Shown here: one piece after another, positions 2,645 through 21,456 of the stretch
How the letters are laid out: every line of letters begins with the position of its first letter
Position numbering within the stretch: position 1 is the stretch's first letter
Source of the DNA: a candidate division WOR-3 bacterium
GTDB taxonomy: Bacteria > Hydrothermota > Hydrothermia > B15-G9 > WFZT01
Direction of reading: 5' to 3'
Assembly: GCA_027053075.1 (NCBI GenBank)
Contig: JALUEE010000047.1
Coordinates: forward strand, 32,001 to 96,000
DNA: 64,000 nt
The notes under the pieces: model-generated
The model's input: the letters and a program-made list of their open reading frames with translations, nothing else
Told to the model about the DNA's origin: nothing
Database searches by the model: none
Made by a program: the position numbers and the translations under genes

Positions 2645-2807
2645 GGTGAGCTCCCTCCCTCGCTTGCGAAGCAAACGGGCTCTTTTACGCTCAGAAACGT
2701 TGGTTGGGATAAGTTAGCGCCCCGCATTTCTCGAAATCTCATTCCGTAGAGGTGTTTGGATAAGTTAGCATTCTTCCCCGCCTGCAAAATAAGTAGGGGA
2801 GCTGCCT
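2645..2807 (-). mobile_element. Possible non-autonomous IS200/IS605-like miniature element
   Basis: Minus strand has a subterminal hairpin (CGTTTGC-TTC-GCAAGCG) followed by GGGAGGGAGCTCAC, and a second imperfect hairpin at the other end; internal direct repeat GCTAACTTATCC x2; no ORF. Confidence 0.3.
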
Positions 2808-3043
2808 GAATTAAATCCAGCTCTGCGTCATGAGCACGGGTATTTGTGAGAAAGTGGATTTCTGGGCACTAAGAATTAAATCAAGCTCTGTGACATAAGC
2901 ACCATCCGCGAGAGAAGAGATTACATTCACGACCTTAAAGACAATAGGAATTAAATCCAGCTCTATAACATAGTCACTTAAAAAACAACGCTGAGCTGGT
3001 TTTGAAAGAGCATGAATTAAAATCAGCTCTATAACACAGTCAC
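2808..3043. CRISPR. Degenerate CRISPR-like mini-array, 4 x 30-nt repeats, unrelated to the main array
   Basis: Repeats at 2808, 2873, 2948, 3014 (consensus near GAATTAAATCCAGCTCTATAACATAGTCAC) separated by unique 35, 45 and 36 nt spacers. Confidence 0.55.
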
Positions 3044-3502: not shown

Positions 3503-4789
3503 GTTCCGATCCTACCTACGAGGCATGGAAATTATCATCCACCTGAACGTCCCATGAAGCAGAATCAAGTTCCGATCCTACCTACGAGGCATGGAAATGA
3601 AAAATTCGGAATCAATTGCCCTGTAAGTGAATTGTTCCGATCCTACCTACGAGGCATGGAAATATTGGCCTTGTTCCTGCAGAAAACATAAGAGTGTCTT
3701 TGTTCCGATCCTACCTACGAGGCATGGAAATTTGAGATTGAGAAGTAGCCGTCAGTAGTGGAGATAGGTTCCGATCCTACCTACGAGGCATGGAAATTCC
3801 CCATATTCAGCTCGATATAGTTTTTTCAATTCGTTCCGATCCTACCTACGAGGCATGGAAATTACCTCCTTTTATTTTAATTATCCCTAAACCTAACGTT
3901 CCGATCCTACCTACGAGGCATGGAAATGCTTTGACTGATTGAGGTATGTGGAAAGTAAGTAAAGAGTTCCGATCCTACCTACGAGGCATGGAAATTTTTG
4001 TTTATAATCCCTTTCATAACATTTCTCCTCGTTCCGATCCTACCTACGAGGCATGGAAATGCGATCTTCTCAGAGAAATACGGGAACTAAAAGAGGGTTC
4101 CGATCCTACCTACGAGGCATGGAAATGCAAAAGTCCCAGGTAATTGCCCTGGAGAATCCCTTGTTCCGATCCTACCTACGAGGCATGGAAATCTCCGTTG
4201 CCGGCTAATCCGAATGCAAGGGTATTGGTTCCGATCCTACCTACGAGGCATGGAAATTAGATATCGAGAAGATTCTGAGGCTTCCGGTGTATTGTTCCGA
4301 TCCTACCTACGAGGCATGGAAATCATTTCTATTTTCTAACTTGGGTTTCACAAATTTTTCCCGTTCCGATCCTACCTACGAGGCATGGAAATAAACCAAT
4401 ATCACCAAATCCTATATAATCATGACTTTCGTTCCGATCCTACCTACGAGGCATGGAAATGAATAGACTATAAAAGCCCAGCCGTTTTGAGTTGGTGTTC
4501 CGATCCTACCTACGAGGCATGGAAATTATGTTTGGAAACATGAAATAAAATGGTATAAGAGAGTTCCGATCCTACCTACGAGGCATGGAAATCCGGAAGA
4601 CCCAGAAAAGATAAAGGAACTTGATGTAGTTCCGATCCTACCTACGAGGCATGGAAATACGGTTTTATCCACACCGTACACGGAGTTTGACAGGGTTCCG
4701 ATCCTACCTACGAGGCATGGAAACTCCAATCCTCTTTTAAGACAAATACATACGGCAATGTTCCGATCCTACCTACGAGGCAAAAAATT
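3503..4789 (+). CRISPR. CRISPR array, 20 repeats / 19 spacers, repeat GTTCCGATCCTACCTACGAGGCATGGAAAT (30 nt)
   Basis: Repeat starts counted at 3503, 3569, 3634, 3702, 3768, 3833, 3898, 3966, 4031, 4097, 4163, 4228, 4294, 4363, 4431, 4497, 4563, 4629, 4695, 4760 (last degenerate); spacers 35-39 nt. Confidence 0.98.
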
Positions 4790-4868
4790 TGGTCTATCTT
4801 CTCTGACTCATTGACCTTCTGAGATTGCTTTGAAGATAAAAAATTTTGGGATTTTGAAACGTCCTCCA

Positions 4869-8961: not shown

Positions 8962-9030
8962 TAATTGACACCAATCGTCTCATTTTAAGACTGATGGCAT
9001 CCGAAATCCCCTAATTTACTTACAAAGCTG

Positions 9031-9046
9031 TGGCAGAAAAATTGCA
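9031..9046 (+). promoter_or_regulatory. Sigma54 (-24/-12) promoter
   Basis: TGGCAGAAAAATTGCA: exact GG-N10-GC spacing, upstream of the cytochrome RBS and next to an NtrC-family gene. Confidence 0.8.
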
Positions 9047-9077
9047 TCTCACTCTCCGACAAAAGGAGGTGAAGTGT

Positions 9078-10991
9078 ATGAAAAAATTACTGGCCCTGTT
9101 ATTAGTTTTTACCGTGCTACACGGCTATGATGCAAAATCTTCCTGCGTAAAGTGCCATTCCAATAAGGAGCTTCTGAAAAAACTCGGAGCTCCTCAAATG
9201 TACATGGACCCAGCACAGGTCGATAAGGAAGTCAATATGAACGGAGTTCCCAAATGCGTTGACTGTCATCTTGGTAACAATAAAACCATGGACATGAAGA
9301 AAGCCCACAAAGGTATGCTGAAGCCATTCTACGCCGCCATCGGTAAAACCCTTAAATACCAGTATGTTGATCGAAGCGTTACCAACTACGATCGCATACT
9401 TCCAAAAGGGAAGAAAAGATTTAAAGTTCTCATGCGTAAGCCCACCTCTGAGGCAAAAAAGAAATACCACATCAAAAAACTCATGCAACTCTTTTATCAT
9501 GACAGGGACACGGCAACATTTACATTTAACATAAAAATTGCCCAGAAGACCTGCGGAAAATGTCATTCAAAAGAGGTAAATGACTATAAGCACACCTCTA
9601 TGGCACTTTCACTTTATCAAAGGGCATACACGGACTGGACAAAATCACCTCCAGGCCCTCAAAACTGCGGAGTCTGGTTTGCTGACAATTACCAGACAAT
9701 AAAAGGAAAATGTACGAGAGATTACACAGAAAAAATGGCAAAATCAGCTACGAGGGGATGTAACAAGTGTCATACTTCATGTCTTGATTGCCATTATGCT
9801 GGATATAAAAAATCCGTGACAAGCCACAAATTCCTCTCAGAGCCAGAGCCTATGTCATGCTACGGTGGAGGGAGAGGAACCATCTGCCACGCAGGTCCAA
9901 TGGATCGCCGTCGTGGTGCTGGTTATATGAGACAGGAGTTTGCTTTCCCGGTAGGAGAACTCCCAACCGACGTACATAATAAAAATGGTGTCACATGCCT
10001 CGATTGTCACGAGCCTCACAACCATGACTGGGGTCACCTTGCTTCAGCAACTGCACGCAACTCCTGCTCAAAATGTCACGAGGAAATAGTTGATGCTGTT
10101 AAAACCGGCATTCACAAGAATGTTGACTGCACTGCGTGCCACATTCAAAAAGTCGGGGCCTATCAGTTCACATTTTGGGGCCCCGGAATATTTGTTGGCA
10201 TGCCCAACGTTTTTACAAAGCACAAGCAGTATTACGGTGTGAGAAGTATGCCTCTACTCGTCAAACACCCGACGCGTAAAGTCTGGATACCGGTCAAACC
10301 CTATCCTATGGCCGTTATGAACATCTCCGAGGATGTGAAACCCACCGGACTTATGGTAAGGTCTATTCCTGAGGAGAAAATTAAGGGACATCCCGAAGTT
10401 GGAGAGCCTAAATTTTTGAAAGTCAAGCGCTCACCAGACCAGATAAACGACATGTACATAATAACTGGCACGTTTGACGGGCTTAAGAAAAACAATAAAA
10501 TGCTCGCATGGATTCAGATGGATAAGATGTCCCACGCTATCGGAAAGGGTAGATCATGTCAGTCCTGCCACAGCTCTCACGATCAGGTTGCAACAACCTG
10601 GTACACTTATTCCAATATGAAGGATGTACAGAAGAAATTCAGCGGAAGTTATATCGTGAAGGCAACAAAGGACGGCATCACTTTCAGTGGTTTTGAAAAT
10701 CATACACCAATAATTCCAAAGCCGGGAAGAGATGTGGAAGATTTCGCTCCATTTTTAACACTTCCCAACGCCTGGAACGTGAGGGGAATCGACTTCTCCA
10801 TACCGTTTGATGAAAAGAAATACGAAGCAGAGCTAAACAAATACAATATGATTTACGCCGAAATCCACGCACTGAAGCTGAAATATGCAAAGGATGAGGC
10901 CAAACTCGAACAGCTGAATTTGATCAAAGCCATTCTCCCCCACAATCCCGAAAAAGCCCAACAGATGCTGAACGAGATGAAAAAGGGGTGA
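9078..10991 (+). CDS. Periplasmic multiheme cytochrome c (9 CxxCH plus one CX8CH)
   Basis: AGGAGG RBS, signal peptide MKKLLALLLVF; CVKCH, CVDCH, CGKCH, CNKCH, CLDCH x2, CSKCH, CTACH, CQSCH and CYGGGRGTICH. Confidence 0.9.
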   Translation: MKKLLALLLVFTVLHGYDAKSSCVKCHSNKELLKKLGAPQMYMDPAQVDKEVNMNGVPKCVDCHLGNNKTMDMKKAHKGMLKPFYAAIGKTLKYQYVDRSVTNYDRILPKGKKRFKVLMRKPTSEAKKKYHIKKLMQLFYHDRDTATFTFNIKIAQKTCGKCHSKEVNDYKHTSMALSLYQRAYTDWTKSPPGPQNCGVWFADNYQTIKGKCTRDYTEKMAKSATRGCNKCHTSCLDCHYAGYKKSVTSHKFLSEPEPMSCYGGGRGTICHAGPMDRRRGAGYMRQEFAFPVGELPTDVHNKNGVTCLDCHEPHNHDWGHLASATARNSCSKCHEEIVDAVKTGIHKNVDCTACHIQKVGAYQFTFWGPGIFVGMPNVFTKHKQYYGVRSMPLLVKHPTRKVWIPVKPYPMAVMNISEDVKPTGLMVRSIPEEKIKGHPEVGEPKFLKVKRSPDQINDMYIITGTFDGLKKNNKMLAWIQMDKMSHAIGKGRSCQSCHSSHDQVATTWYTYSNMKDVQKKFSGSYIVKATKDGITFSGFENHTPIIPKPGRDVEDFAPFLTLPNAWNVRGIDFSIPFDEKKYEAELNKYNMIYAEIHALKLKYAKDEAKLEQLNLIKAILPHNPEKAQQMLNEMKKG

Positions 10992-11076
10992 AAACGGTGA
11001 GACGTAAGGAACGAATTGTGTTTTTTTATGTCTTGAAAGTTCAACGGGGCTAAAAATCTGATTTAAAGGGGAATAG

Positions 11077-11110
11077 GGGGGCGCCTCCTTCGGAGGCGCC
11101 CCCTAACTTT
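11077..11110 (+). terminator. Intrinsic terminator between convergent cytochrome and cas operons
   Basis: GGGGGCGCCTCC-TTC-GGAGGCGCCCCC followed by T-run. Confidence 0.7.
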
Positions 11111-11171
11111 TTATCGGCATCTCACTGGCTCAAGTTATGGTTTTATTCAATGTGATATCAAACATCTTCAT

Positions 11172-12194
11172 TTAATCAATGACAGGAATATCCATTTCAG
11201 TGACGTCAATTCTCACGAGACTTTTATCACCGGACTGTCTCACATACTCAGCCTGTCTATCTCCCACCACAGCCTCAAGAATCATTGCTGATGATACCAT
11301 CGCGGTCCCACCGGTTATATTAAAACTAATATCGCTATCTTCATAATTTTTGAGATTTTGCAGCAACCTATCTAATTCAATCTTAACGTCTCTGAAATCA
11401 CTGACATCAACAACTCTGGACTTTTCTATGATCAAATCTCCCGTGGTAATTCTTTTTTCGAGATGTGGAATAACCTTCAGAAATTTTTCAAAATCAGCAA
11501 AATGTTCTTTTGCTTTCTCTGATAATATGACAATAACCCCTTCAAGAATGTGATTTTCGTGTATAATTGCTCTCAACGCCGGTGTCCAGTTGCCGGGCAA
11601 GTCTTTTAAAGTTTCCTCTTTAGGTATTGCCGGGTTACCCAGTTGCCGTAATTTTTCTTGAAGAGATTGAATCTGTTCAAAGGGCTCACTGCTGGGCAAA
11701 CTCAGTGCAAAGATAAGAACTTTTCTGGGGAGCGGTTTATCGTGGGCAGGTTTTTCTTTTGGCTCGAACAAACAATTGATGTATAGTAGAGGCAATAAAA
11801 ACAGAAACAAGATTGCCAATATGAATGTCAGAATGTGATGCCAGAGTAAGCCCTTATTGTAATCCGGTGTTAAAACAAGTATCCCTGCATCCCTCACACT
11901 ATCAAATACCCAGGAAATCTGGAATAAAACACTCAGGAAAATCCAGATGGACAGGTATCTATAAATTTTCTTTAACCCTTTTCGCGGTGGCTCTTTTAGA
12001 AAGTTACGAAGGGCATCTGTGAGGCCAATAGATTTGTCCTTATATTTATACATCAAGATGGTTATTGCTGAAATCAAAAGGATAATCAATAAAGTTTGGC
12101 CTAACGCCATAAAGGAGAGTATAAATGGGAAAACGCTTGAAAAGGCCAAAAGTGCAATTATGAACAGTATCTTTAAAAATTCCCTGAAGCTCAA
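11172..12194 (-). CDS. CRISPR-associated membrane effector: about 4 N-terminal TM helices plus C-terminal CARF-like domain (Cam1/Cam2-like)
   Basis: Four hydrophobic segments in aa 1-140; Rossmann-like VLIFALS start and CARF motif-II-like ISFNITGGTAMVSSAM; last gene of the cas operon. Confidence 0.7.
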   Translation of the reverse strand: MSFREFLKILFIIALLAFSSVFPFILSFMALGQTLLIILLISAITILMYKYKDKSIGLTDALRNFLKEPPRKGLKKIYRYLSIWIFLSVLFQISWVFDSVRDAGILVLTPDYNKGLLWHHILTFILAILFLFLLPLLYINCLFEPKEKPAHDKPLPRKVLIFALSLPSSEPFEQIQSLQEKLRQLGNPAIPKEETLKDLPGNWTPALRAIIHENHILEGVIVILSEKAKEHFADFEKFLKVIPHLEKRITTGDLIIEKSRVVDVSDFRDVKIELDRLLQNLKNYEDSDISFNITGGTAMVSSAMILEAVVGDRQAEYVRQSGDKSLVRIDVTEMDIPVID

Positions 12195-12196
12195 TT

Positions 12197-12583
12197 TTAT
12201 ATCCTTCTCATTTCTCTGAACTTTTCTCTGATGCTCTGGAGATTTATTATTTCTGCAACCTCAAATTTTGGAGGGGTAGAATTCGGAACCGGCTTCAATC
12301 TCACTACAGGTGGGAAATATCCCATCAAACCATGAAGTGCTGCAAGGAGGGTGACAGCAATAAAATTAAAGGCTGGTGGAACTATTATAATCGGCCGTGT
12401 CTGCCACTCCTCAGGTGTCAGGTTACACGCCTCAATAAGATCTTTCACCTGCTCCTCAAAAGACTTTTCATTATCAAAAAACACTGGAATCTGCCTTATC
12501 TCCTCAATCTCCTCATCTATCAATTTCCTGATCTGCCCCACCTGCTCCTCAGTTAGTGGATGAGAAAAATTAAGCACGAGCAT
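12197..12583 (-). CDS. csx15: CRISPR-associated protein Csx15 (ring-nuclease-type)
   Basis: N-terminal LNFSHPLT and LHGLMGYFP...EIINLQ motifs typical of Csx15; position in type III operon. Confidence 0.8.
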   Translation of the reverse strand: MLVLNFSHPLTEEQVGQIRKLIDEEIEEIRQIPVFFDNEKSFEEQVKDLIEACNLTPEEWQTRPIIIVPPAFNFIAVTLLAALHGLMGYFPPVVRLKPVPNSTPPKFEVAEIINLQSIREKFREMRRI

Positions 12584-12585
12584 GG

Positions 12586-12713
12586 TTACTTTAAAATTTT
12601 AAACACTCCATATCCCTGATTCCCTTTTGCTCCAACACCTATGTTTTCAAGGGCAAATTCGAGAAATCTTTATCCCAGAATATTGAAAAAGTATCTATAA
12701 AAATAACCTTCCC
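12586..12713 (-). pseudogene. cmr6: 3' remnant of a type III-B cmr6 gene
   Basis: Manual translation: GKVIFIDTF then, in another frame, RFLEFALENIGVGAKGNQGYGVFKILK-stop, both Cmr6-type RAMP motifs; stop 2 nt before the csx15 ATG. Confidence 0.7.
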
Positions 12714-12717
12714 GTTA

Positions 12718-13575
12718 TTATGATTTAATTGGTCGCCATAAACCATTATCCAATATTTCAAAGTAAACATCTTGATCGCTATCCACCTTTGTTCCTGGTT
12801 TCCAAGTCAAGCCTTGTGTATAAATACGCTGTAAGTACCTGCCCTCCAAAACTTCAAAATCTCCTTTAAATTTGAAGTGCGGGTCTGGCATTATATGACC
12901 AAATGCTATATTGGATTTTATGCGTGGATTTGTATGATTCAGTTCCACTTCGTAATCCAAAAAACGAGAAGCTTCCGGATGTTTCACGAGTTCAATATGA
13001 CCAAATCCGTAGCGGGTATCTGCTCCTACCATCAGTTTCTTTATTGAGAAAACTTGGTTTTGAACACTCTCATCGGCAATAAACACATACCCCACCATGA
13101 ACATCTCGGGAGGTGGATAATGGTTACTAATTTGCCAATAAGGTTGAATGCACTCTAATTCGCGAAGTGTCCCTTCCTCAGCACTATCTGATTTGGGATC
13201 AATGGATGTGGAGGGAAACGAATACAGAATTTTTGATTTGAAGTCTCTGTTTGGCTTATCATCATTTGGAGTGTCTTCCCTTTTCCAAACGAGTCCATCA
13301 GAGTATTCTGAATACCACATAGCGTATTCATCGCCAATTTTTTCGGCTGGGAACAGATAGGAAAATCGGACATTTTGTAGCAAATTTTCACCAATCGAAA
13401 TATAATCCGGGAAACTACTTCCTGCCGTATCCCGTGATAACTCGGCTGTTAATGCTCCCCAAATTGTCCTTGCTGGTATGTATAAGCGGGTTCTGTTCAA
13501 AATTCCTGCTGGTGCCGTGCCGATATTTATGGGTGATTTTACCTTCCAGACCCATCGGAACATCTTCCATGCCAT
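12718..13575 (-). CDS. cmr3: Type III-C Cas5-group RAMP (Cmr3-like)
   Basis: SPINIG, RTRLYIPARTIWGALT, VGADTRYGFG glycine loop; terminal position in III-C gene order. Confidence 0.75.
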   Translation of the reverse strand: MAWKMFRWVWKVKSPINIGTAPAGILNRTRLYIPARTIWGALTAELSRDTAGSSFPDYISIGENLLQNVRFSYLFPAEKIGDEYAMWYSEYSDGLVWKREDTPNDDKPNRDFKSKILYSFPSTSIDPKSDSAEEGTLRELECIQPYWQISNHYPPPEMFMVGYVFIADESVQNQVFSIKKLMVGADTRYGFGHIELVKHPEASRFLDYEVELNHTNPRIKSNIAFGHIMPDPHFKFKGDFEVLEGRYLQRIYTQGLTWKPGTKVDSDQDVYFEILDNGLWRPIKS

Positions 13576-13581
13576 AATTTC

Positions 13582-13950
13582 TCACCCCTGTTTGGCCTTC
13601 AAGTGATAACGAGCATACGAGAATGCGGTGCGTAGAAGGTCTCGAGCAAAAAGTAAATCATCTAAATCTTTGGAGTTTGCTAAGAGCTTTATTGCTTCCA
13701 AAATATCGTCCGTAGTATCCAAGCGATTTCCGAAAATGGTCTTGAGAAATTGCAGAGATTCCGATCTAACCTCTTTAGCTACATTGTTATTCTTGGCCTT
13801 GAGATATAGAAACATCGCATACGGGCCTTGCTCTTCCAAAACAGTCAAGGCCTCGTTGACAAGATTTTCATCTATGCCAGAAATCTGGGCTATCTCACGG
13901 CCCAATTCGGCACACTGAATGTCCAAATTTTTCATTTGAGCTTCACTCAC
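13582..13950 (-). CDS. cmr5: Small subunit Cmr5 (Cas11)
   Basis: Small helical protein, ALTVLEEQGPYAMFLYL and YARYHLKA; GTG start at 13950 behind GAGGAGG. Confidence 0.75.
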   Translation of the reverse strand: MSEAQMKNLDIQCAELGREIAQISGIDENLVNEALTVLEEQGPYAMFLYLKAKNNNVAKEVRSESLQFLKTIFGNRLDTTDDILEAIKLLANSKDLDDLLFARDLLRTAFSYARYHLKAKQG

Positions 13951-13978
13951 GGCTTTCCTCCTCGTTTGGTTCAGAGGC

Positions 13979-15010
13979 CTATGACGGATTAGATTGTCTC
14001 TGAGCGGGTTCAACGCAATCAATATCTTGGGTTCCGGGCGATTCATTCTCATGCACAACTTCTACGCGTCCCATGCCTCGAGTGCCCATGCCGCCGATGC
14101 CCAAGTGTTTGAGATAGGGGTGAGCCTGGTGGGTTACCTCATGCACCCTTTCTGGAGAATACATTCGCTGACCACCATCCAGAATGACGCCTATCTCCTG
14201 TCCACCTATTCTAAAATGCTGAGGATTCTTTGCGATAATTTCCCACACCAGGACCGTGGATCGAGGCAGGGCTTCGTAAGAGAAGAGAGCCCTTTCTTCG
14301 GCAGCACCAGTTTCGGGATTGATGGAAACCGAGGTGCGCACTTCCAAATTGCTGTTGACGATGTGGGCGAAGAGGCGGTCAGGCACCAAAGCAAGGCGGT
14401 TTTGGATGTAATCTGGGATACCCAGGCCTTGCAATTTAGTTTTAATATCATTCATTTGGGCACACGCTTGCACAGGCAGCAATAACCAACCCAAGTTAAG
14501 AGGGTTGCCCGAGTTTGATTCAAGGTAAACGGCATTTTCCTCCACCCCCTGCACATTCAAACCTATAAAACGCAAGGTCTGAGGTGCAGTCACCCACATG
14601 GGGCCTTGACGGGTAGCGACAGGGAAGAGCAGCAAATGGACATCAGTAAAGGCGGCCAAGCCTGCAAAACCGCCTTCCTGCCCTGCACCACGGGCGAAAC
14701 CAAAGACAGTGCAAACGGGACAGTCAGGTTGGCGACAATGCCCATGATCCGCATCCAGCCCTAACCCGGCGCAATCGGGGTAAAAAGGTTTATCTCGGTT
14801 CGGAAATTGTGCTGTCCGATTTTCTTCAAAATACATCGCCACATAGGCCCGATACACTCCAGCTAAGCTGGACCCAGGAATTTTAGGCACCTGGGTGACC
14901 GGGTCGCGCACAATAGTCAAATCTACCCGACCGATGCGGGTCCCACCGGTGCCCACATGAATAGGGTCCAGAGCCAGACCAACCTGCAAGAATTTTTTGT
15001 AACTAGACAT
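13979..15010 (-). CDS. cmr4: Cmr4 backbone RAMP (Cas7 group, target RNase)
   Basis: DPIHVGTG, RVDLTIVRD (catalytic Asp position retained), IPGSSLAGV, ALFSYEALP, GIGGMGTRGMG. Confidence 0.92.
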   Translation of the reverse strand: MSSYKKFLQVGLALDPIHVGTGGTRIGRVDLTIVRDPVTQVPKIPGSSLAGVYRAYVAMYFEENRTAQFPNRDKPFYPDCAGLGLDADHGHCRQPDCPVCTVFGFARGAGQEGGFAGLAAFTDVHLLLFPVATRQGPMWVTAPQTLRFIGLNVQGVEENAVYLESNSGNPLNLGWLLLPVQACAQMNDIKTKLQGLGIPDYIQNRLALVPDRLFAHIVNSNLEVRTSVSINPETGAAEERALFSYEALPRSTVLVWEIIAKNPQHFRIGGQEIGVILDGGQRMYSPERVHEVTHQAHPYLKHLGIGGMGTRGMGRVEVVHENESPGTQDIDCVEPAQRQSNPS

Positions 15011-15023
15011 TATTTACCTCCTT

Positions 15024-18000
15024 TCAAACATTTTCTTTAAGGACTATTGTATGCCAATCTATCGCCCATTGGAGTAATCTCTGTTGGGCAGAGTCTATGA
15101 GGGTTTCAAGTGCTGTGCCCCTGACCTCTAAATGGTGCACAAGCATGGCACGGAGAGTATCTTCCCACAAATCTTTTGAAACGGCTCGTTGCCCCTCGGG
15201 TGTTTGCCATTCCTTTTCCAAACGCCCAAGTTCTGTTCTAAATCTCTGAAGAGCCGTTTGGCTTGGGACAACTTTCTTTAATAGGTTCCATATTTCGCGC
15301 ATTTGCTCCCAATCTTCCAAGTAATGTAAATCTGGGTTAGAGAAGCGAGCGGAGGTGCTTCCCATGAAGAGGATGGTTACACGCGCTGTGGATACTTTTA
15401 CACCATCACCTGGACGAAGGTCCGATACATGACGGTAAACACGGCCATCCTTTGGATGGCGAAAATCTCGGGGAAAACGAAGTTGTCGATCCTCAATTAC
15501 CATGTAAGGATAGAACACATCATCTCGCCCATCAGGCATAGCAGTAGGCACTATCTTTAAGATGCTCTTGCCGTCTTCCAGTTTTAAGCGGAGGACTACC
15601 ACACCTGCTTGTCGTTCCACTTCTTCCACCTGCCATGTTTCCTCCTCTCCTTTCAGTTCTTCTTCCATTTTACGTGTTGCTCCGATCACGGCCTGATAGG
15701 GCAACATTCGAGGGAATGCGACCACGCCTATCCGTAAAGGAAGCCGATCCCACACGCGGGAGAAGTGTTCCTTCCACCAGGAAACAGCTATATCCACACA
15801 TTCGGAGGCCGCTTCCAATGGCACCAGCACCCGAAAACGAAGTGGAGAGACTTCTACCGGAATGACCGGGTGATACAAGCTCAAGTGCGCATGAGGCTGA
15901 CGCAGCTCATTCACATGGGTAACAGTCATAGGACGCTCCTGACCAAAGGTATCTTCTTCTTCCAGCCTAATTTGAGCACCCTGAAAGGAACTCGATTGCT
16001 CTTCTGGCCGTAGCAATCTACCCAGATTGGAAGCCGTCACAAAACCTCCCAGGCTACGCACATAGACCAGGCTAATCTGCCGACCTTCCCAACGGCCATT
16101 GTAAAGGGTCAGGTCTCGCCAATCGTTATTGTCGTCTGGAACCAACACCAAGCGTCGGACACGCCAGCAATTTTCGCTGCGAGCCGCTATCTGCCGAAAT
16201 TCCTTCAGCAAGTCATGGAAGAACTCCTCGGCCTCCCGCCAGAAGCGATAGACACGGCCAGGTGAGGGAAGCTTGCGGAAGAGTTGATGCGCAAGCCAAG
16301 CAGCTCGCTGGTCGTCATTCAAGATACCCCATGTAGGTGCATCGGTACGATCCTCTACAATTTTACGGAAAAAAGTTGGCCAGTCATTTTCATACTTGTA
16401 ACCCTCTTGAAGGTTGGCAAGCAATTGGTCGTTTTTATCGAATTTAAAATGCTGTGGATTTTGTGGATCGCGAAACCTTTGTTTTAGCTCGTCAATCAGC
16501 TTATCCATAGAGCCTGTGGGGGCAATAGGATTAGGTTGACCTGAAAGGACCAGGTTAAATCTCACCCACTCCGGTATTGCTTGTACCCGCAGGCTATCCA
16601 CACGGCTGCCATTGAGCCAATCTTCAAGGTCCAGTGAGAATGTTAGCAAAGCCAGGCGGCCGTTGCGGTCAGCCACCTCCTCGAACCAGATGGTGTCGTA
16701 ATCCAGTTGCCCCTGAAGCCATGCATCTCTTCGATGGTGGCGCCGCTCGCGGCATACCGCGCATGGCTTACCCTTGTTGGTGGGATCACCGTTTAGTCGC
16801 ACACGGCAGACGGGACACACATGACCACGCGTCTCTGAAGGAGCCCTCCAATGAACATCCCACTGCTTGTGAACAGGGACGGCCACTACCAGCTTGGACT
16901 CTTTAAGCTCCCTAACAATGGGTACCAATGAACGGGTCGGCTTACTCAGGCGCACAAAGGGCGGGGTTTCCAGTTCCAGATTACGGGCGATTTCTTCTAC
17001 TTGATCTTGGAGCCATCCATTCCATCCTCGGAGCCGGGATGCGAAGTTCTCTTCATCAAACTCAAAATTCGGATCTCTCCGTCTTTGACGTTCCTGTTCT
17101 TCTTCATCGAATCTCTCGCCGGGAAAAGAAAACACGGCCATGCTGCTGTCTCGATAAAGCAAAGAGCCTGCAGCAATGTCCACCTCCACCAATTCAGCTA
17201 CACGACGGAAAAATTCGTCAATGGCACCTTGAGCACCTGTCCAGTCACCAATTTTTACCGCGCGGGCTTCGTAGTGCTCGGTCCCAAGGGCGATAGTGAG
17301 CAGGCGCCAGCGGGTATTGCTTTTGGTAAAATTATTGATAGCCAATTTCTCATCTTTCGATAGGTCATCGAAGGACTTCTCTTTTCCTTTCTTTGTTCTA
17401 AGGTTTATACCCAATTTGGTAGCTATGCTCTTCCAGTTCCAAGGAAAACCCTTATCGAGCAACGCCCCAGCCACCGCGCTCTTAAATAGAGCCGCAGCCA
17501 CATAGGACTGGTCCCACAAGGTAACATCGTTGTTGGGCAAACGCGTCTCGGCTAAGGTGGACATAAAAGCTCTTCGGACAAAAGATTTTTCTCCGATAGC
17601 TCTATTCCGCCAGTCTTGCCAATGAGCTACATCTGACACACCTCTGGTTCCTAAGTCCCGCAACTCCTCCAAAACTCGCCGGATTTCTCCCACCAATTGC
17701 TGCCAGCCCTGTGGAGTCAATAGTTCAGGTGGATTGGCCAGCAGGTTACGCTTTGGGTGGCCCCAAGGTGAGGAAAGCCACATGTGAGGAATGGTTTGCT
17801 TAAGATAATCTGAGGTAGAAGTAGGAAGGTTTTTCTCGACGCCAGAGACAATACCATGTCCTGCTTGGAGTAATCCCAAAAGACCAGGGTTACGTCCTGC
17901 ATGTTGTTCAATAAACGTAGAAAAAGAACCTGGCCATGCATTATTGGGTATTCCACTCCCGTATAGCCGTTTTACCCATTCTAATAAGGTATCCCATGGA

Positions 18001-18182
18001 AAAGGTGGCGTTTCCAAATCATGCCAATGTCGTTCATCGTAGCCGTTGTTCTCGCCACCATGACGGCGTAAAAATTCAATTCGTGCCTTTCCAGCCATGT
18101 GAAACCACCCAATGGCCTCCATTGCTAAGAGTAAAGGGCGATGTTGCCGTAAAGTCTCAGCCGGTGAGAAAGTGCTGCTCAT
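15024..18182 (-). CDS. cas10: Cas10 large subunit, type III-C / Csx11-like, degenerate HD and cyclase motifs
   Basis: ETRLPNNDVTLWDQSY, zinc finger CPVC..CAVC, PSPGRVYRFW; WFHMAGK instead of LHDxGK; no GGDD; ATG 18182 overlaps cmr6 stop (ATGA) with GGAGGT RBS. Confidence 0.88.
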   Translation of the reverse strand: MSSTFSPAETLRQHRPLLLAMEAIGWFHMAGKARIEFLRRHGGENNGYDERHWHDLETPPFPWDTLLEWVKRLYGSGIPNNAWPGSFSTFIEQHAGRNPGLLGLLQAGHGIVSGVEKNLPTSTSDYLKQTIPHMWLSSPWGHPKRNLLANPPELLTPQGWQQLVGEIRRVLEELRDLGTRGVSDVAHWQDWRNRAIGEKSFVRRAFMSTLAETRLPNNDVTLWDQSYVAAALFKSAVAGALLDKGFPWNWKSIATKLGINLRTKKGKEKSFDDLSKDEKLAINNFTKSNTRWRLLTIALGTEHYEARAVKIGDWTGAQGAIDEFFRRVAELVEVDIAAGSLLYRDSSMAVFSFPGERFDEEEQERQRRRDPNFEFDEENFASRLRGWNGWLQDQVEEIARNLELETPPFVRLSKPTRSLVPIVRELKESKLVVAVPVHKQWDVHWRAPSETRGHVCPVCRVRLNGDPTNKGKPCAVCRERRHHRRDAWLQGQLDYDTIWFEEVADRNGRLALLTFSLDLEDWLNGSRVDSLRVQAIPEWVRFNLVLSGQPNPIAPTGSMDKLIDELKQRFRDPQNPQHFKFDKNDQLLANLQEGYKYENDWPTFFRKIVEDRTDAPTWGILNDDQRAAWLAHQLFRKLPSPGRVYRFWREAEEFFHDLLKEFRQIAARSENCWRVRRLVLVPDDNNDWRDLTLYNGRWEGRQISLVYVRSLGGFVTASNLGRLLRPEEQSSSFQGAQIRLEEEDTFGQERPMTVTHVNELRQPHAHLSLYHPVIPVEVSPLRFRVLVPLEAASECVDIAVSWWKEHFSRVWDRLPLRIGVVAFPRMLPYQAVIGATRKMEEELKGEEETWQVEEVERQAGVVVLRLKLEDGKSILKIVPTAMPDGRDDVFYPYMVIEDRQLRFPRDFRHPKDGRVYRHVSDLRPGDGVKVSTARVTILFMGSTSARFSNPDLHYLEDWEQMREIWNLLKKVVPSQTALQRFRTELGRLEKEWQTPEGQRAVSKDLWEDTLRAMLVHHLEVRGTALETLIDSAQQRLLQWAIDWHTIVLKENV

Positions 18183-19198
18183 GGCGTACCTCCTTTGGTT
18201 AGCCAGTTTTGAACTTCCTGCCAGAGTTCGTCGCGAGTATCCTTTTCCACGCTGCCATGAGTTTTGTGGAAAGCGCGCCACTTTTTGATTTCCGCTGTGC
18301 CCCAGCCCACAGTGCGCTTGGCGGAGATCCCATAGGGAGTAAGCAAAGTTTCAATAGCTTCAAGCAGTTTTGGGAGTACATCCACAGGTTTTGCCTCTGG
18401 CTCCATACCGGGCCAGGGCGCGTAAAGTAATGAAAGTGTTCCTTCGGCTCCCTCAACTTCCTCTCTTTCTTGGGTTCCATCAGACTTTTTCTTCACCTGT
18501 ATCGTCCGTCCAGGAACCACTTCATAGTAAATAGGTTGGGTGCCAGCGCGATTGGTACGACTATGTGGGTTGATGACCTCGAAGCCGATCTTGTTGAACC
18601 ACGTGGGGTAGAAGACCAGAGCGCCCTGGTGGAAGTTTTTCTCTTCCTTCTTCTCGTTACCAAAGAGATGCTGAATCCAGTCCGGATCCCACCAGCCATC
18701 TATTTTGCCATTGTGTTGTTCCAGATATTCCATCAGTCCTTCGTGCATTCTACAGGCCCATCGCAGCATGCCTTTACAAGAGGAAGCCGCCATAAATGGC
18801 ACGCCAAAGACCCGGTCTTTACGCACAGGGTTGTCCATCACATGGAAAATTCGGTCATCACGGGAATACCAGGGAGTGAGTAGTTCAAAATCCACCTGAA
18901 GAGCAAGCCAACGATCAGATAATAGCGTGGAAAAGTCAATTTGTAGTCCTGGATACAACTTGACCGGGAATCTCCGAGGCACTTTTCCCATGTATTCCTT
19001 ACGGAGCCTCGTTTTCTCCCGCTCCGCCTGACGTTTTCCCTGTCTGTCATTTGTCTTTTCCGCTTCTAATCGCTTGATTTCAGTCTTCAAGAAGCATTTG
19101 AAAATATGATCGATAAAACCTCCGGCCAGCCTCCAAGCCACCGGAGTGTTTTCCAATGGTTCGCAAGTCTCAAGAAAGATGAAGTAATCCCAAGTCAT
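18179..19198 (-). CDS. cmr6: Cmr6 RAMP
   Basis: PFMAASSCKGMLR, GALVFYPT, EVINPH, PIYYEVVP, GISAKRTVGWG. Confidence 0.88.
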   Translation of the reverse strand: MTWDYFIFLETCEPLENTPVAWRLAGGFIDHIFKCFLKTEIKRLEAEKTNDRQGKRQAEREKTRLRKEYMGKVPRRFPVKLYPGLQIDFSTLLSDRWLALQVDFELLTPWYSRDDRIFHVMDNPVRKDRVFGVPFMAASSCKGMLRWACRMHEGLMEYLEQHNGKIDGWWDPDWIQHLFGNEKKEEKNFHQGALVFYPTWFNKIGFEVINPHSRTNRAGTQPIYYEVVPGRTIQVKKKSDGTQEREEVEGAEGTLSLLYAPWPGMEPEAKPVDVLPKLLEAIETLLTPYGISAKRTVGWGTAEIKKWRAFHKTHGSVEKDTRDELWQEVQNWLTKGGTP

Positions 19199-20421
19199 GA
19201 ATTTTCCTCCTGTTTGAACAATCGTTCCATAATTTGCTCTCCTGTAATGAAATCCTCATTCGGATTAAAGTCCTGCCAAATTTGCCCCAAGCGGCGCTTC
19301 ATTTCTTCAAAATCCACTAAACCCGGCTTCACAAAGCCAAAGGTGCGGCGTGCTTCTTCTGGATGTTCGAAACTGAACACTTTTTTGCTTACCTGTTGAC
19401 TACCCGCAAGCCAGTGATTAACCTCGTTATCTCGCCAGAAGTTCTGCGCTTGGTTCTTCCGCATATTCCTTCCAATGACAAGATTATATGTACTTTTGGT
19501 GAACGATTGCCTTGCCAGATACCGTCCTTTCACGAACCAGAAGTTTTGCAACGAGGCCCAGGCAAAATCTTGGTCGTTAAAGCTCTTTCGCCACCGTTCC
19601 TGTTTTACATATGCTTCTGCTTGCTGCAGAGTGCAGCCAACTCCTTGAGGCCGCTCCTCAACCGTGATGAGCCCGAAATCCTGATGGTGTCTCTTTCCGG
19701 CCCAAGCATTGATCTCCCGAGTTTCATTGTCCCTTCGCACTTTGATTTTGAGAGGTTCACCATGCGGTTTTCCACTAAGGAGGTTTTCAAGGTCAAGAAG
19801 ACGAGTCACCAATGTGCTATCAACTTCCAGGATTACATCGCCTTCTTGTAACTGGAGCCCCCGCCGACTGTGTCGCACTTTTATCTGCCCGCTTGAATCG
19901 TCCAGATCATCGGCGCCAAGATCAGCGATTCCCCATTCATCTGACGGCTTGAACACCGTTTTCCCACCCAAGGCCCCGTATTCGGCAATAAGGTGGATGG
20001 TTGCATCCAGCAGACACCATTCTTCTGGATGAATAGGTCGCAAAGGGATGAAGCGTAGGATAAAAATATTACTCCCGTTGTCGTCATTATCTACCTTGAT
20101 CTGATTTTGGATGACCTTTTTTCCATATTTGTCCACCACCATAAGCCGGAACTTGCGTGCCCAACCAGTGCAACCGAAAAGTTCACAAACCACGCAATGG
20201 TGGCCAGGTTCATGTGGCTGTTTGTTAGGAGCTGGGCAACGAATTTCCGACGCCGTCGGGTCACAAGCCTTCCCACCCAATCCTCGAACTAACACCTCGA
20301 ACCACCAGCGAAGTGAACCCATTATACCGGTCAAGATCGTTCTTTCCCCACGCCTTGAAGCATCCCCTGTGAATATCGGGGTTAGCGCTTTTAACTTCCA
20401 TTCCTCCCATTCTTTACTCAT
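19195..20421 (-). CDS. cmr1: Cmr1 RAMP with PDZ-like insertion
   Basis: LTPIFTGD, GSLRWWFE, CVVCELFGCTG; G-loop GALGGK...DFGLI interrupted by about 80 aa PDZ-like segment. Confidence 0.88.
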   Translation of the reverse strand: MSKEWEEWKLKALTPIFTGDASRRGERTILTGIMGSLRWWFEVLVRGLGGKACDPTASEIRCPAPNKQPHEPGHHCVVCELFGCTGWARKFRLMVVDKYGKKVIQNQIKVDNDDNGSNIFILRFIPLRPIHPEEWCLLDATIHLIAEYGALGGKTVFKPSDEWGIADLGADDLDDSSGQIKVRHSRRGLQLQEGDVILEVDSTLVTRLLDLENLLSGKPHGEPLKIKVRRDNETREINAWAGKRHHQDFGLITVEERPQGVGCTLQQAEAYVKQERWRKSFNDQDFAWASLQNFWFVKGRYLARQSFTKSTYNLVIGRNMRKNQAQNFWRDNEVNHWLAGSQQVSKKVFSFEHPEEARRTFGFVKPGLVDFEEMKRRLGQIWQDFNPNEDFITGEQIMERLFKQEENS

Positions 20422-20543
20422 TAGGATATCTCCATTTTTAAAATAACCTGTAAGGACAAGAGAATAACGGTTTCATCAGGAAATAAGCATTTCGGGTATA
20501 GGGAATCATGGCTGTAGAAATTCAAGAGATAAAAAGTCTCTGT

Positions 20544-20660
20544 GAACCAGAATCTCATTGCGCCTCTTATCGAGGCGGGGCGGAGTTCGGGCTCACCCTC
20601 TGGGTCAGCTCCGCCCATAAACATTGGGGTTAAGACTTTTAGTTTGAAGGTGGTTTTCAT
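20544..20660 (-). pseudogene. cmr1: 5' remnant (39 codons) of a type III-B cmr1
   Basis: MKTTFKLKVLTPMFMGGADP...ELRPASIRGAMRFWF with good RBS, then abruptly non-RAMP sequence. Confidence 0.85.
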
Positions 20661-20697: not shown

Positions 20698-21456
20698 TTA
20701 ATCCTTATTTCTCACCACTTCGATCATGCCGAAGCCCTGGCTGTTTTTGGCTCCCAGGCCCGCATTGTAAGCAAGCATAAACCAGGGCTCGGGCAGGCTT
20801 AATTCATATATTCCTACCCAACCCTTAACAATGACGCCTTTAAACTTCGTTATTATCTCGTTGTGCTTCTTAACCTTTACGGGCTTTATATACCCCTCAA
20901 TTGGTGGGATGTCGTTTTTGGAGAAGTAAGCTTTGGCCTTGCGACGGAGGTTATCAAAGATCAATTCTTCAAATTCTTTCTCGAAGGGACTAAAGTAATA
21001 GGTCTTTCTCTGTCCATCGGACGTGTATAAAGTTCGATAAACTGTTATCGGAGAGATTGCTTTAATTTTCATAGGTCCCGAGAGTTTGAAAGGTCTCTCA
21101 ACCTCAATTGATACGAGATTGCATTTAGCTGAGCCGATTCTTACCACCCCTTCCTTAACCAGTGTAGCTGCGAAAGATTCGAGAATCTCAATATCAACAG
21201 ATGAAATCTTAAACCAAACTCGCCCCTCAAAAATCAGCTTTTTGCTTATCGGATCATACCTTCTATTTTCACCGAAGAGTCTTGAGAAGGTGTATAACTT
21301 GAATCTTCTCTTTCCAAATTGGTAGCCTTCATCATGTACCCATTCAGCGAGCTTCTCTTTGATGTTGTTGAGGATAAAACTCTGGATGATGTGGTTGTAA
21401 TTGACGGAGATTCTAAGGATTCCGTTCTCTGGCTCAAATTTTACAATTAATCTCAA
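20698..21456 (-). CDS. cas6: CRISPR-associated endoribonuclease Cas6
   Basis: HDEGY...FKLYTFS, SPITVY, C-terminal GLGAKNSQGFG. Confidence 0.95.
   Translation of the reverse strand: MRLIVKFEPENGILRISVNYNHIIQSFILNNIKEKLAEWVHDEGYQFGKRRFKLYTFSRLFGENRRYDPISKKLIFEGRVWFKISSVDIEILESFAATLVKEGVVRIGSAKCNLVSIEVERPFKLSGPMKIKAISPITVYRTLYTSDGQRKTYYFSPFEKEFEELIFDNLRRKAKAYFSKNDIPPIEGYIKPVKVKKHNEIITKFKGVIVKGWVGIYELSLPEPWFMLAYNAGLGAKNSQGFGMIEVVRNKD

Follow-up and report, generated by a model that had tools for sequence, protein, structure and literature searches.

CRISPR loci of subtype III-C were characterised, in the consulted part of one survey, by the absence of cyclase sites and of known effectors, with an HD domain in about half of them (PMC11229360), and the consulted part of a second survey found very few ring nucleases in them (PMC12409355). 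A third source, likewise consulted in part, is in line with this picture of inactive palms, no known effectors and very rare ring nucleases (PMC12669027), and some Csx1 clusters are listed elsewhere as occasionally linked to III-C (PMC6546367, in the part consulted). In this study, we analysed a 64,000-nucleotide stretch (the window) from a candidate division WOR-3 bacterium (assembly GCA_027053075.1, contig JALUEE010000047.1, positions 32,001 to 96,000), in which a III-C core whose Cas10 has no GGDD cyclase motif is followed by csx15 and by a gene for a transmembrane CARF protein (TM-CARF). It is probable that these two genes are the downstream half of an older III-B operon, the core of which was replaced by the GGDD-less III-C core, and that the pair is idle at present. 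The feature is real, is built of known parts and is explained mainly by module exchange.

Remnants of III-B genes flank the III-C core on both sides. The cmr1 stub (20544-20660) shares 34 of 38 residues with the III-B Cmr1 of a relative, G006 (score 182 against a shuffle maximum of 39), encoded between cas6 and a GGDD Cas10; beyond the stub, the open reading frame (ORF) consists of unrelated sequence and ends at the III-C cmr1 start. The cmr6 stub, which is no longer joined to a reading frame, matches the III-B Cmr6 of G011, G001 and G006 at 20/24, 19/23 and 18/24 residues (scores of 96-109 against shuffle maxima of 36-47), compared with only 8-11 identities to four III-C Cmr6 proteins. A second cmr6 scrap was recognised by a weak 13-residue match to Cmr6 residues 215-228 of G011 and G001 (scores of 45 and 38, without a shuffle control); in an intact cmr6 it would lie about 65 codons further upstream, and its position therefore suggests an internal deletion of the old gene. 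The G+C content is 48-52% in cmr1, cmr6, cas10 and cmr4 and 38-42% in cas6, csx15 and TM-CARF. On the minus strand, to which all of the operon genes belong, the order is cas6, a short ORF (20421-20660), cmr1, cmr6, cas10, cmr4, cmr5, cmr3, csx15 and TM-CARF; the features, in positions within the window, are as follows:

20698..21456, minus strand: cas6, the first gene of the operon (TIGR01877 above cut-off)
20544..20660, minus strand: 5' stub of the displaced III-B cmr1, 39 codons (similarity to the G006 III-B Cmr1)
19195..20421, minus strand: III-C cmr1 with an inserted PDZ-like domain (TIGR01894 above cut-off; Pfam PDZ_2 E 1e-7)
18179..19198, minus strand: III-C cmr6 (PADLOC Cmr6 E 2e-62)
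15024..18182, minus strand: Csx11-type Cas10 (III-C), 1052 aa (TIGR02682 above cut-off; structure model; Foldseek matches to Cas10)
13979..15010, minus strand: III-C cmr4 (Cas7; TIGR02580 above cut-off)
13582..13953, minus strand: III-C cmr5 (Cas11), start approximate (PADLOC Cmr5 III-C E 1e-29; 63% to G023)
12718..13575, minus strand: III-C cmr3 (Cas5; PADLOC Cmr3 E 7e-73)
12675..12713, minus strand: probable second cmr6 scrap (weak 13-residue match)
12586..12666, minus strand: 3' stub of the displaced III-B cmr6, last 26 codons and stop (similarity to III-B Cmr6)
12197..12583, minus strand: csx15 ring nuclease, predicted, 128 aa (NF040560 above cut-off; PDB 9teu; residues)
11172..12194, minus strand: four-helix TM-CARF, 340 aa (CARF8/Cam1-like group), predicted membrane effector gated by cyclic oligoadenylate (cOA) (PADLOC; AlphaFold; fold search; conserved residues)
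3503..4792, strand not assigned: CRISPR array of 20 repeats, about 6.4 kb past the end of the operon (repeat search)

The first-pass annotation, which was made from the sequence alone, had described the operon correctly, with an intact, tightly spaced csx15 and four-helix CARF-like gene at its end: both ORFs are open and stand 2 bases apart. Throughout the operon the genes overlap or are separated by at most 37 bases, the sole exception being the 134 bases between cmr3 and csx15; this gap with its cmr6 remnant was not listed there, and neither was the HD motif of Cas10, which reads HM. A separately assembled contig of run X1, possibly the source run of the stretch, matches positions 10353-14413 throughout (0 differences), which shows that the cmr3-csx15 junction did not arise from a faulty join. 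An assembly chimera of two strains could be imagined in a metagenome-assembled genome when related organisms with other cores occur in the same run; it is barely credible here, given the spanning contig and stubs that are truncated and internally deleted, which would not be expected from a simple mis-join. An X1 contig that joins 12574 to 20544 was considered as a sign of a hidden second locus and rejected, since its loose end resembles, by eye, the Csx15 of G009 and another organism is the likelier source. Two contigs of run X10 depart from the window at 20544, where the stub ends, and their letters then carry on, by eye, a Cmr1 frame, which is a weak hint. The flanks and csx15/TM-CARF are covered in runs X4 and X10, and most of the bins of the core are thin or empty; this fits strains with another core and was not counted as evidence.

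The context of the TM-CARF orthologs points in the same direction. In a survey of 272 genomes of the phylum, which are kin and not independent of each other, the TM-CARF profile matched 28; 13 matches were strong, including that of the organism studied, and 15 weak CARF-only ones (E >1e-14, about 100 profile positions) were dropped. Seven of the 12 other genomes with a strong match have a GGDD Cas10, on the contig of the TM-CARF gene in four (G009, G083, G029, G078) and on another contig in three (G001, G033, G040); the TM-CARF proteins of G029, G078 and G033 are members of a clade that is more distant and carries the lysine. In none of the 12 does TM-CARF stand beside a Csx11 Cas10. The nearest ortholog with a visible context (50% identity; tree support 88/88, not starred) belongs to the G009 operon, which reads cmr1, cas10 with HD and GGDD, cmr3, cmr4, cmr5, cmr6, two CARF nucleases, csx15 and TM-CARF. 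The G001 ortholog follows directly on cmr4-cmr5-cmr6, and another (locus L138) follows a Csx1-HEPN gene and csx15. The locus thus shares with the III-B loci of G009, G006, G001 and G083 its cas6, the 5' end of cmr1, the 3' end of cmr6, csx15 and TM-CARF, and differs from them in that the relatives have retained a GGDD Cas10 and, in many cases, additional CARF effectors. Two distinct TM-CARF genes (about 360 and 265 aa) lie tail to tail in G018 (L014:5178-7073) and G040 (L015, L016), and TM-CARF genes away from any Cas10 were seen in L144, L145 and L147 (G082, G081 and G024), alone, beside csx3 or interrupted by stop codons.

A stub of the same cmr1 in G009 (L011:5196-5282; 88.5% over 87 nt) precedes a different, complete, GGDD-bearing III-B core, which points to a repeated exchange of cores at a cas6-led site of this kind. 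In G009, a secreted-protein gene and an ABC permease gene lie between cas6 and the stub.

Csx11 was found in 15 of the 272 genomes. The III-C core of the window (cmr1, cmr6, cas10, cmr4, cmr5, cmr3) is complete and has the same order in G023, G026 and G031; this gene set and order, the palm without GGDD and Cas10 homologs (57-81%) named from Ammonifex, Rhodothermus, Thermus and Chloroflexus are what it has in common with subtype III-C. It differs in the downstream csx15 and TM-CARF, which are absent or rare for III-C in the consulted parts of the published surveys, in the HM in place of HD and in the PDZ insert of Cmr1 (residues ~190-238, in a protein 65 residues longer than its G023 homolog). 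As suggested by the first-pass annotation, we checked whether TM-CARF and csx15 co-occur with III-C loci: queries for csx15, TM-CARF, Csx1-like, Csx3-like and CARF-nuclease genes gave 0 matches in the III-C loci that were fetched from 14 other genomes and from a Thermus plasmid, at least 0.8 kb past cmr3 being visible in six genomes and the plasmid and about half of the loci being cut by contig ends. The closest core that was fetched, that of G023 (Cas10 67%, Cmr4 74%), lies between cas6 and type I genes and has no csx15 or CARF genes. Four relatives (L062, L064, L065, L066) have their III-C core inserted within a set of type I genes, the insertion point in G031 lying between cas8b and cas7. 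The plasmid, from Thermus thermophilus (L156, NZ_AP024271.1), carries a 68%-identical III-C core in which the cmr1 region and cas10 are interrupted; two transposases are annotated within its cmr1-cmr6 stretch.

From these relatives, the ancestral operon would have read cas6, cmr1, cas10 (GGDD), cmr3, cmr4, cmr5, cmr6, csx15 and TM-CARF. Target RNA would have triggered the synthesis of cOA, probably cyclic tetra-adenylate (cA4), by the GGDD Cas10; the CARF domain would have bound it, upon which the helices would open or disturb the membrane, as Cam1 does, and Csx15 would have degraded or sequestered the signal. A III-C cassette would then have come to lie between codon 39 of the ancestral cmr1 and the final third of the ancestral cmr6. 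With the complex now resident, target RNA would be cleaved by Cmr4 and no signal made, which would have left the pair idle. The Asp at what we take to be the position of the RNase motif is present in the N-terminus of the III-C cmr4.

The pair probably receives no signal because the replacing III-C core has no GGDD cyclase motif. Cas10 scored 285 bits against TIGR02682 (Csx11; cut-off 249) and E 6e-115 against PADLOC Cas10c, and its structure model folds like Cas10 in Foldseek comparisons. The claim that it has no GGDD anywhere was confirmed, the sole near-motif being an unrelated KGEE, and GGDD is absent from all 120 listed homologs of the 681 found, this Cas10 being among the 120. A predicted hairpin at residues 774-788, which may be the equivalent of the GGDD position in the model, reads SPLR, without an acidic residue, clade-wide; it stands ~35 residues ahead of a stretch anchored by hhalign to the post-GGDD strand of active Cas10s, the alignment of the two Cas10 alignments yielding a 35-column anchor only (probability 68). 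Of 91 aligned clade members, at least 89 have HM in place of the HD nuclease motif. Between residues 28 and 117, H54, H109, E116 and K117 do not vary and H28 and H94 scarcely vary, so that the region may possibly be a remodelled, histidine-rich metal site and the domain not dead.

The III-C complex might have adopted the inherited pair and drive it by a non-canonical messenger made at the remodelled palm or by direct contact, which would give subtype III-C its first signalling output. It would agree with genes that are intact and look co-transcribable, with an arrangement that recurs in an independent run at ~9% divergence, with a well-conserved Cas10 clade that keeps D518 of the first palm strand at ≥90%, and with G082, which has an intact TM-CARF and, at another place, a III-C Cas10, with no GGDD Cas10 detected. 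However, the predicted catalytic hairpin has no acidic residue, the other III-C loci examined have neither csx15 nor TM-CARF, the stubs show inheritance from a III-B core, and the lysine-less CARF motif also occurs beside GGDD Cas10s; we consider this explanation improbable. Among the three options of the first-pass annotation, that of orphans of a displaced III-B module is thus strongly backed by the stubs and the ortholog contexts, that of a non-canonical signal or direct activation gained no support, the other III-C loci examined being without these genes, and that of a response in trans found no source in the assembly of 114 contigs.

The genome (2.44 Mb, 95.4% complete) was searched for such a source. 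The profiles TIGR02577, TIGR02578 and PF22335 and custom Cas10 and palm profiles run on six frames were all empty for a GGDD Cas10, and none of the 12 GGDD strings in the six-frame translation stands in a Cas10 context; the check for a GGDD-intact cas10 elsewhere, proposed in the first-pass annotation, therefore revealed none in this assembly. Neither mCpol (PF18182) nor SMODS (CBASS-type synthase) was matched, nor were Card1-CARF, Csx1, Csx3-like genes or canonical III-B/III-A subunits elsewhere in the genome. Little weight can be placed on two of the searches alone, that for SAVED, which matched in no control genome either, and that for A4, which was run on this genome without its own control (A4 matched in other genomes). 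A 2236-base contig (C99) carries another III-C-like piece (cmr4-cmr5-cmr3), truncated on both sides, whose own Cas10 is not in the assembly; some cas genes are consequently missing from it. A second array lies at the end of another contig (C57). A type I-B locus (C30:497-8306; cas8b, 7, 5, 3, 4, 1, 2) has no cas6 beside it, and the cas6 of the operon is the only one found in the genome by tblastn.

With the same origin, the pair may be active in trans: an unassembled GGDD Cas10 would make cOA, TM-CARF would open and Csx15 would clear the signal. The fragmented assembly with its cut type III fragment and the array at a contig end leave room for this, both genes are intact, and two relatives from the genus, G001 and G003, have three palm-2 matches each. 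Action in trans has also been proposed for Csx15 (10.64898/2026.10.26.761840) and for effector-less loci (PMC11229360), both in the parts consulted. However, all of the Cas10, palm, subunit and effector searches elsewhere in the genome were empty, and the genes of C99 are nearest to III-C modules with a Csx11-type Cas10, so that we regard this explanation as unlikely, though as a serious alternative.

Csx15 matched the family hidden Markov model NF040560 at 166.9 bits (cut-off 35) and PDB 9teu with E 2e-19. It has H8, R119, R123 and R126, the residue numbers quoted as catalytic for CsCsx15 in the consulted part of the source (10.64898/2026.10.26.761840), the correspondence being by number and not by alignment. 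In these two respects it is like CsCsx15, HaCsx15 and CliCsx15 (10.64898/2026.10.26.761840, PMC13148439, both in part), and by family likeness it is a predicted ring nuclease that would cleave or sequester cOA; the difference from known Csx15 is that no source of cOA was found in the genome here. According to the part of the survey consulted, Csx15 occurs without a type III locus in 25% of genomes (PMC12409355).

TM-CARF matched PADLOC CARF_2M (E 1e-23) and CARF8--CARF_TM (PDLC01944; E 1e-18 over residues 14-324), profiles that lack a curated cut-off. Its AlphaFold model (predicted local distance difference test score of 94) has four long N-terminal helices, the third of only moderate hydrophobicity, and a C-terminal domain that superposes on Can2 (Z 14.0, root-mean-square deviation 2.1, 126 aligned residues) and on Cam1 (Z 11.1, deviation 2.4, 115 aligned residues; 8t64 and 8t65 were matched structurally). 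These matches speak for a CARF domain, on which the first-pass annotation had left a doubt. Residues conserved in the family are retained. A PDB sequence search with a close TM-CARF alignment returned nothing meaningful and no match to the Cam1 chains, and the predicted homodimer scored 0.31 (mark 0.42), which was counted neither for nor against.

Cam1 of Nitrosococcus halophilus (PMC10808066, in part) is similar in its N-terminal membrane part, C-terminal CARF domain and match to the CARF8 profile, and CARF8 is equated with the cA4-binding Cam1 group in the consulted part of a supplement (PMC12669027). TM-CARF differs in having four N-terminal helices instead of one, in the 13% identity over the structural match and in the lack of a lysine in the CARF motif in most of its family; it does not have the single helix with a pore-lining Asp17 that defines Cam1 in the strict sense. 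D98 in helix 3, an acidic position (D or E) among 73 of 90 homologs, could by analogy play a role like that of Asp17.

The usual CARF motif is TGGxK, and the TGGTA at residues 294-298 had been read as a hint of altered ligand binding. We reject this reading: among 90 aligned homologs, 43 have serine, 27 alanine and 14 lysine at residue 298, so that the lysine-less motif is the norm of the family, and lysine-less orthologs share an operon with a GGDD Cas10 in G009 and G083. The G001 ortholog, downstream of III-B cmr4-5-6, has an identical TGGTA. Judging by the cA4-type neighbours of the orthologs (Csx1, Csx3, CARF-PD-DExK), the ligand of the family is probably cA4.

The TM-CARF family might also respond to an input that is independent of a cyclase or foreign to CRISPR, for example a Panoptes-like or CBASS-type nucleotide. 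This would explain the stand-alone copies in G081 and G082, and in the consulted parts of the sources, type II Panoptes pairs CARF-TM effectors with mCpol (PMC13577387) and Csx15 cleaves CBASS signals (10.64898/2026.10.26.761840). The common ground with type II Panoptes is a CARF domain joined to a membrane part. In contrast, mCpol is missing here and the neighbours are csx15 and cmr3; moreover, the Panoptes effector is toxic without its cyclase (PMC13577387, in part), which is a misfit with a cyclase-less gene beside a broad ring nuclease. With mCpol and SMODS unmatched in the genome and most of the in-locus neighbours of the orthologs being of the cA4 type, we hold such an input to be highly improbable.

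Several observations weigh against the replacement of a III-B core that left an idle pair. In five of the 12 TM-CARF relatives (G005, G018, G024, G081 and G082), no GGDD Cas10 was detected; two of these, G005 and G018, are truncated by contig ends, and the TM-CARF of G024 has five stops and is the only broken copy of the five. The genome is in 114 contigs, C99 is cut and cas genes are demonstrably missing. The G+C contrast is broken by cmr5 (44%) and cmr3 (41%). Both csx15 and TM-CARF are intact, keep their conserved residues and show no decay, and their substitutions relative to a 94%-identical copy (P0001) split 8 against 7 when polarised, with 7 unpolarised, so that no relaxed selection is seen. 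Finally, an 8.1-kb contig from an independent run of another study (X2) has the same III-C core and cmr1 stub at ~9% divergence (578/6577); the arrangement therefore occurs in more than one lineage and may be old.

Relaxed selection, named beforehand as a possible sign of decaying genes, was thus not observed against the close copy. The proposed comparison of nonsynonymous and synonymous substitution (dN/dS) was run against relatives from the genus and order, where synonymous sites are saturated (pS 0.79-0.86, pN 0.16-0.35), and it speaks for long-term constraint only. By eye, most of the differences between the stubs and their intact orthologs fall on third codon positions, and so intactness alone is no proof of present function. 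In X2, one contig has a 2-base insertion at 12300 and another skips 451 bases (11755-12207), which may be decay in a sister lineage. One way to reconcile intact genes, stubs and a recurrent arrangement would be a III-C cassette that passes from strain to strain by recombining within the flanks they share, whereby stubs, csx15 and TM-CARF would be drawn again and again from III-B backgrounds that had lately been functional.

Beside the main array, four degenerate 36-base repeats occur 65-75 bases apart at 2802-3043. A multi-heme cytochrome c gene (9030-10991) is convergent with the operon, and a strong hairpin lies between them at 11076-11104. Promoter and terminator scans of the operon gave no signal above chance level, none of the sequencing runs listed was an RNA dataset carrying the locus, and a scan of viral contigs found no relative of it. 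A narrow literature search found nothing on this four-helix clade or on such a core swap, orphan ancillary genes included.

Replacement of the III-B core makes the locus a readable fossil of CRISPR module exchange in which both breakpoints are still legible. It signifies that an effector that adjoins a Cas10 need not be served by that Cas10, which calls for caution in guilt-by-association screens. It also yields a four-helix, lysine-less clade of TM-CARF proteins, the natural partner of which is obtainable from a III-B operon of the G009 type.

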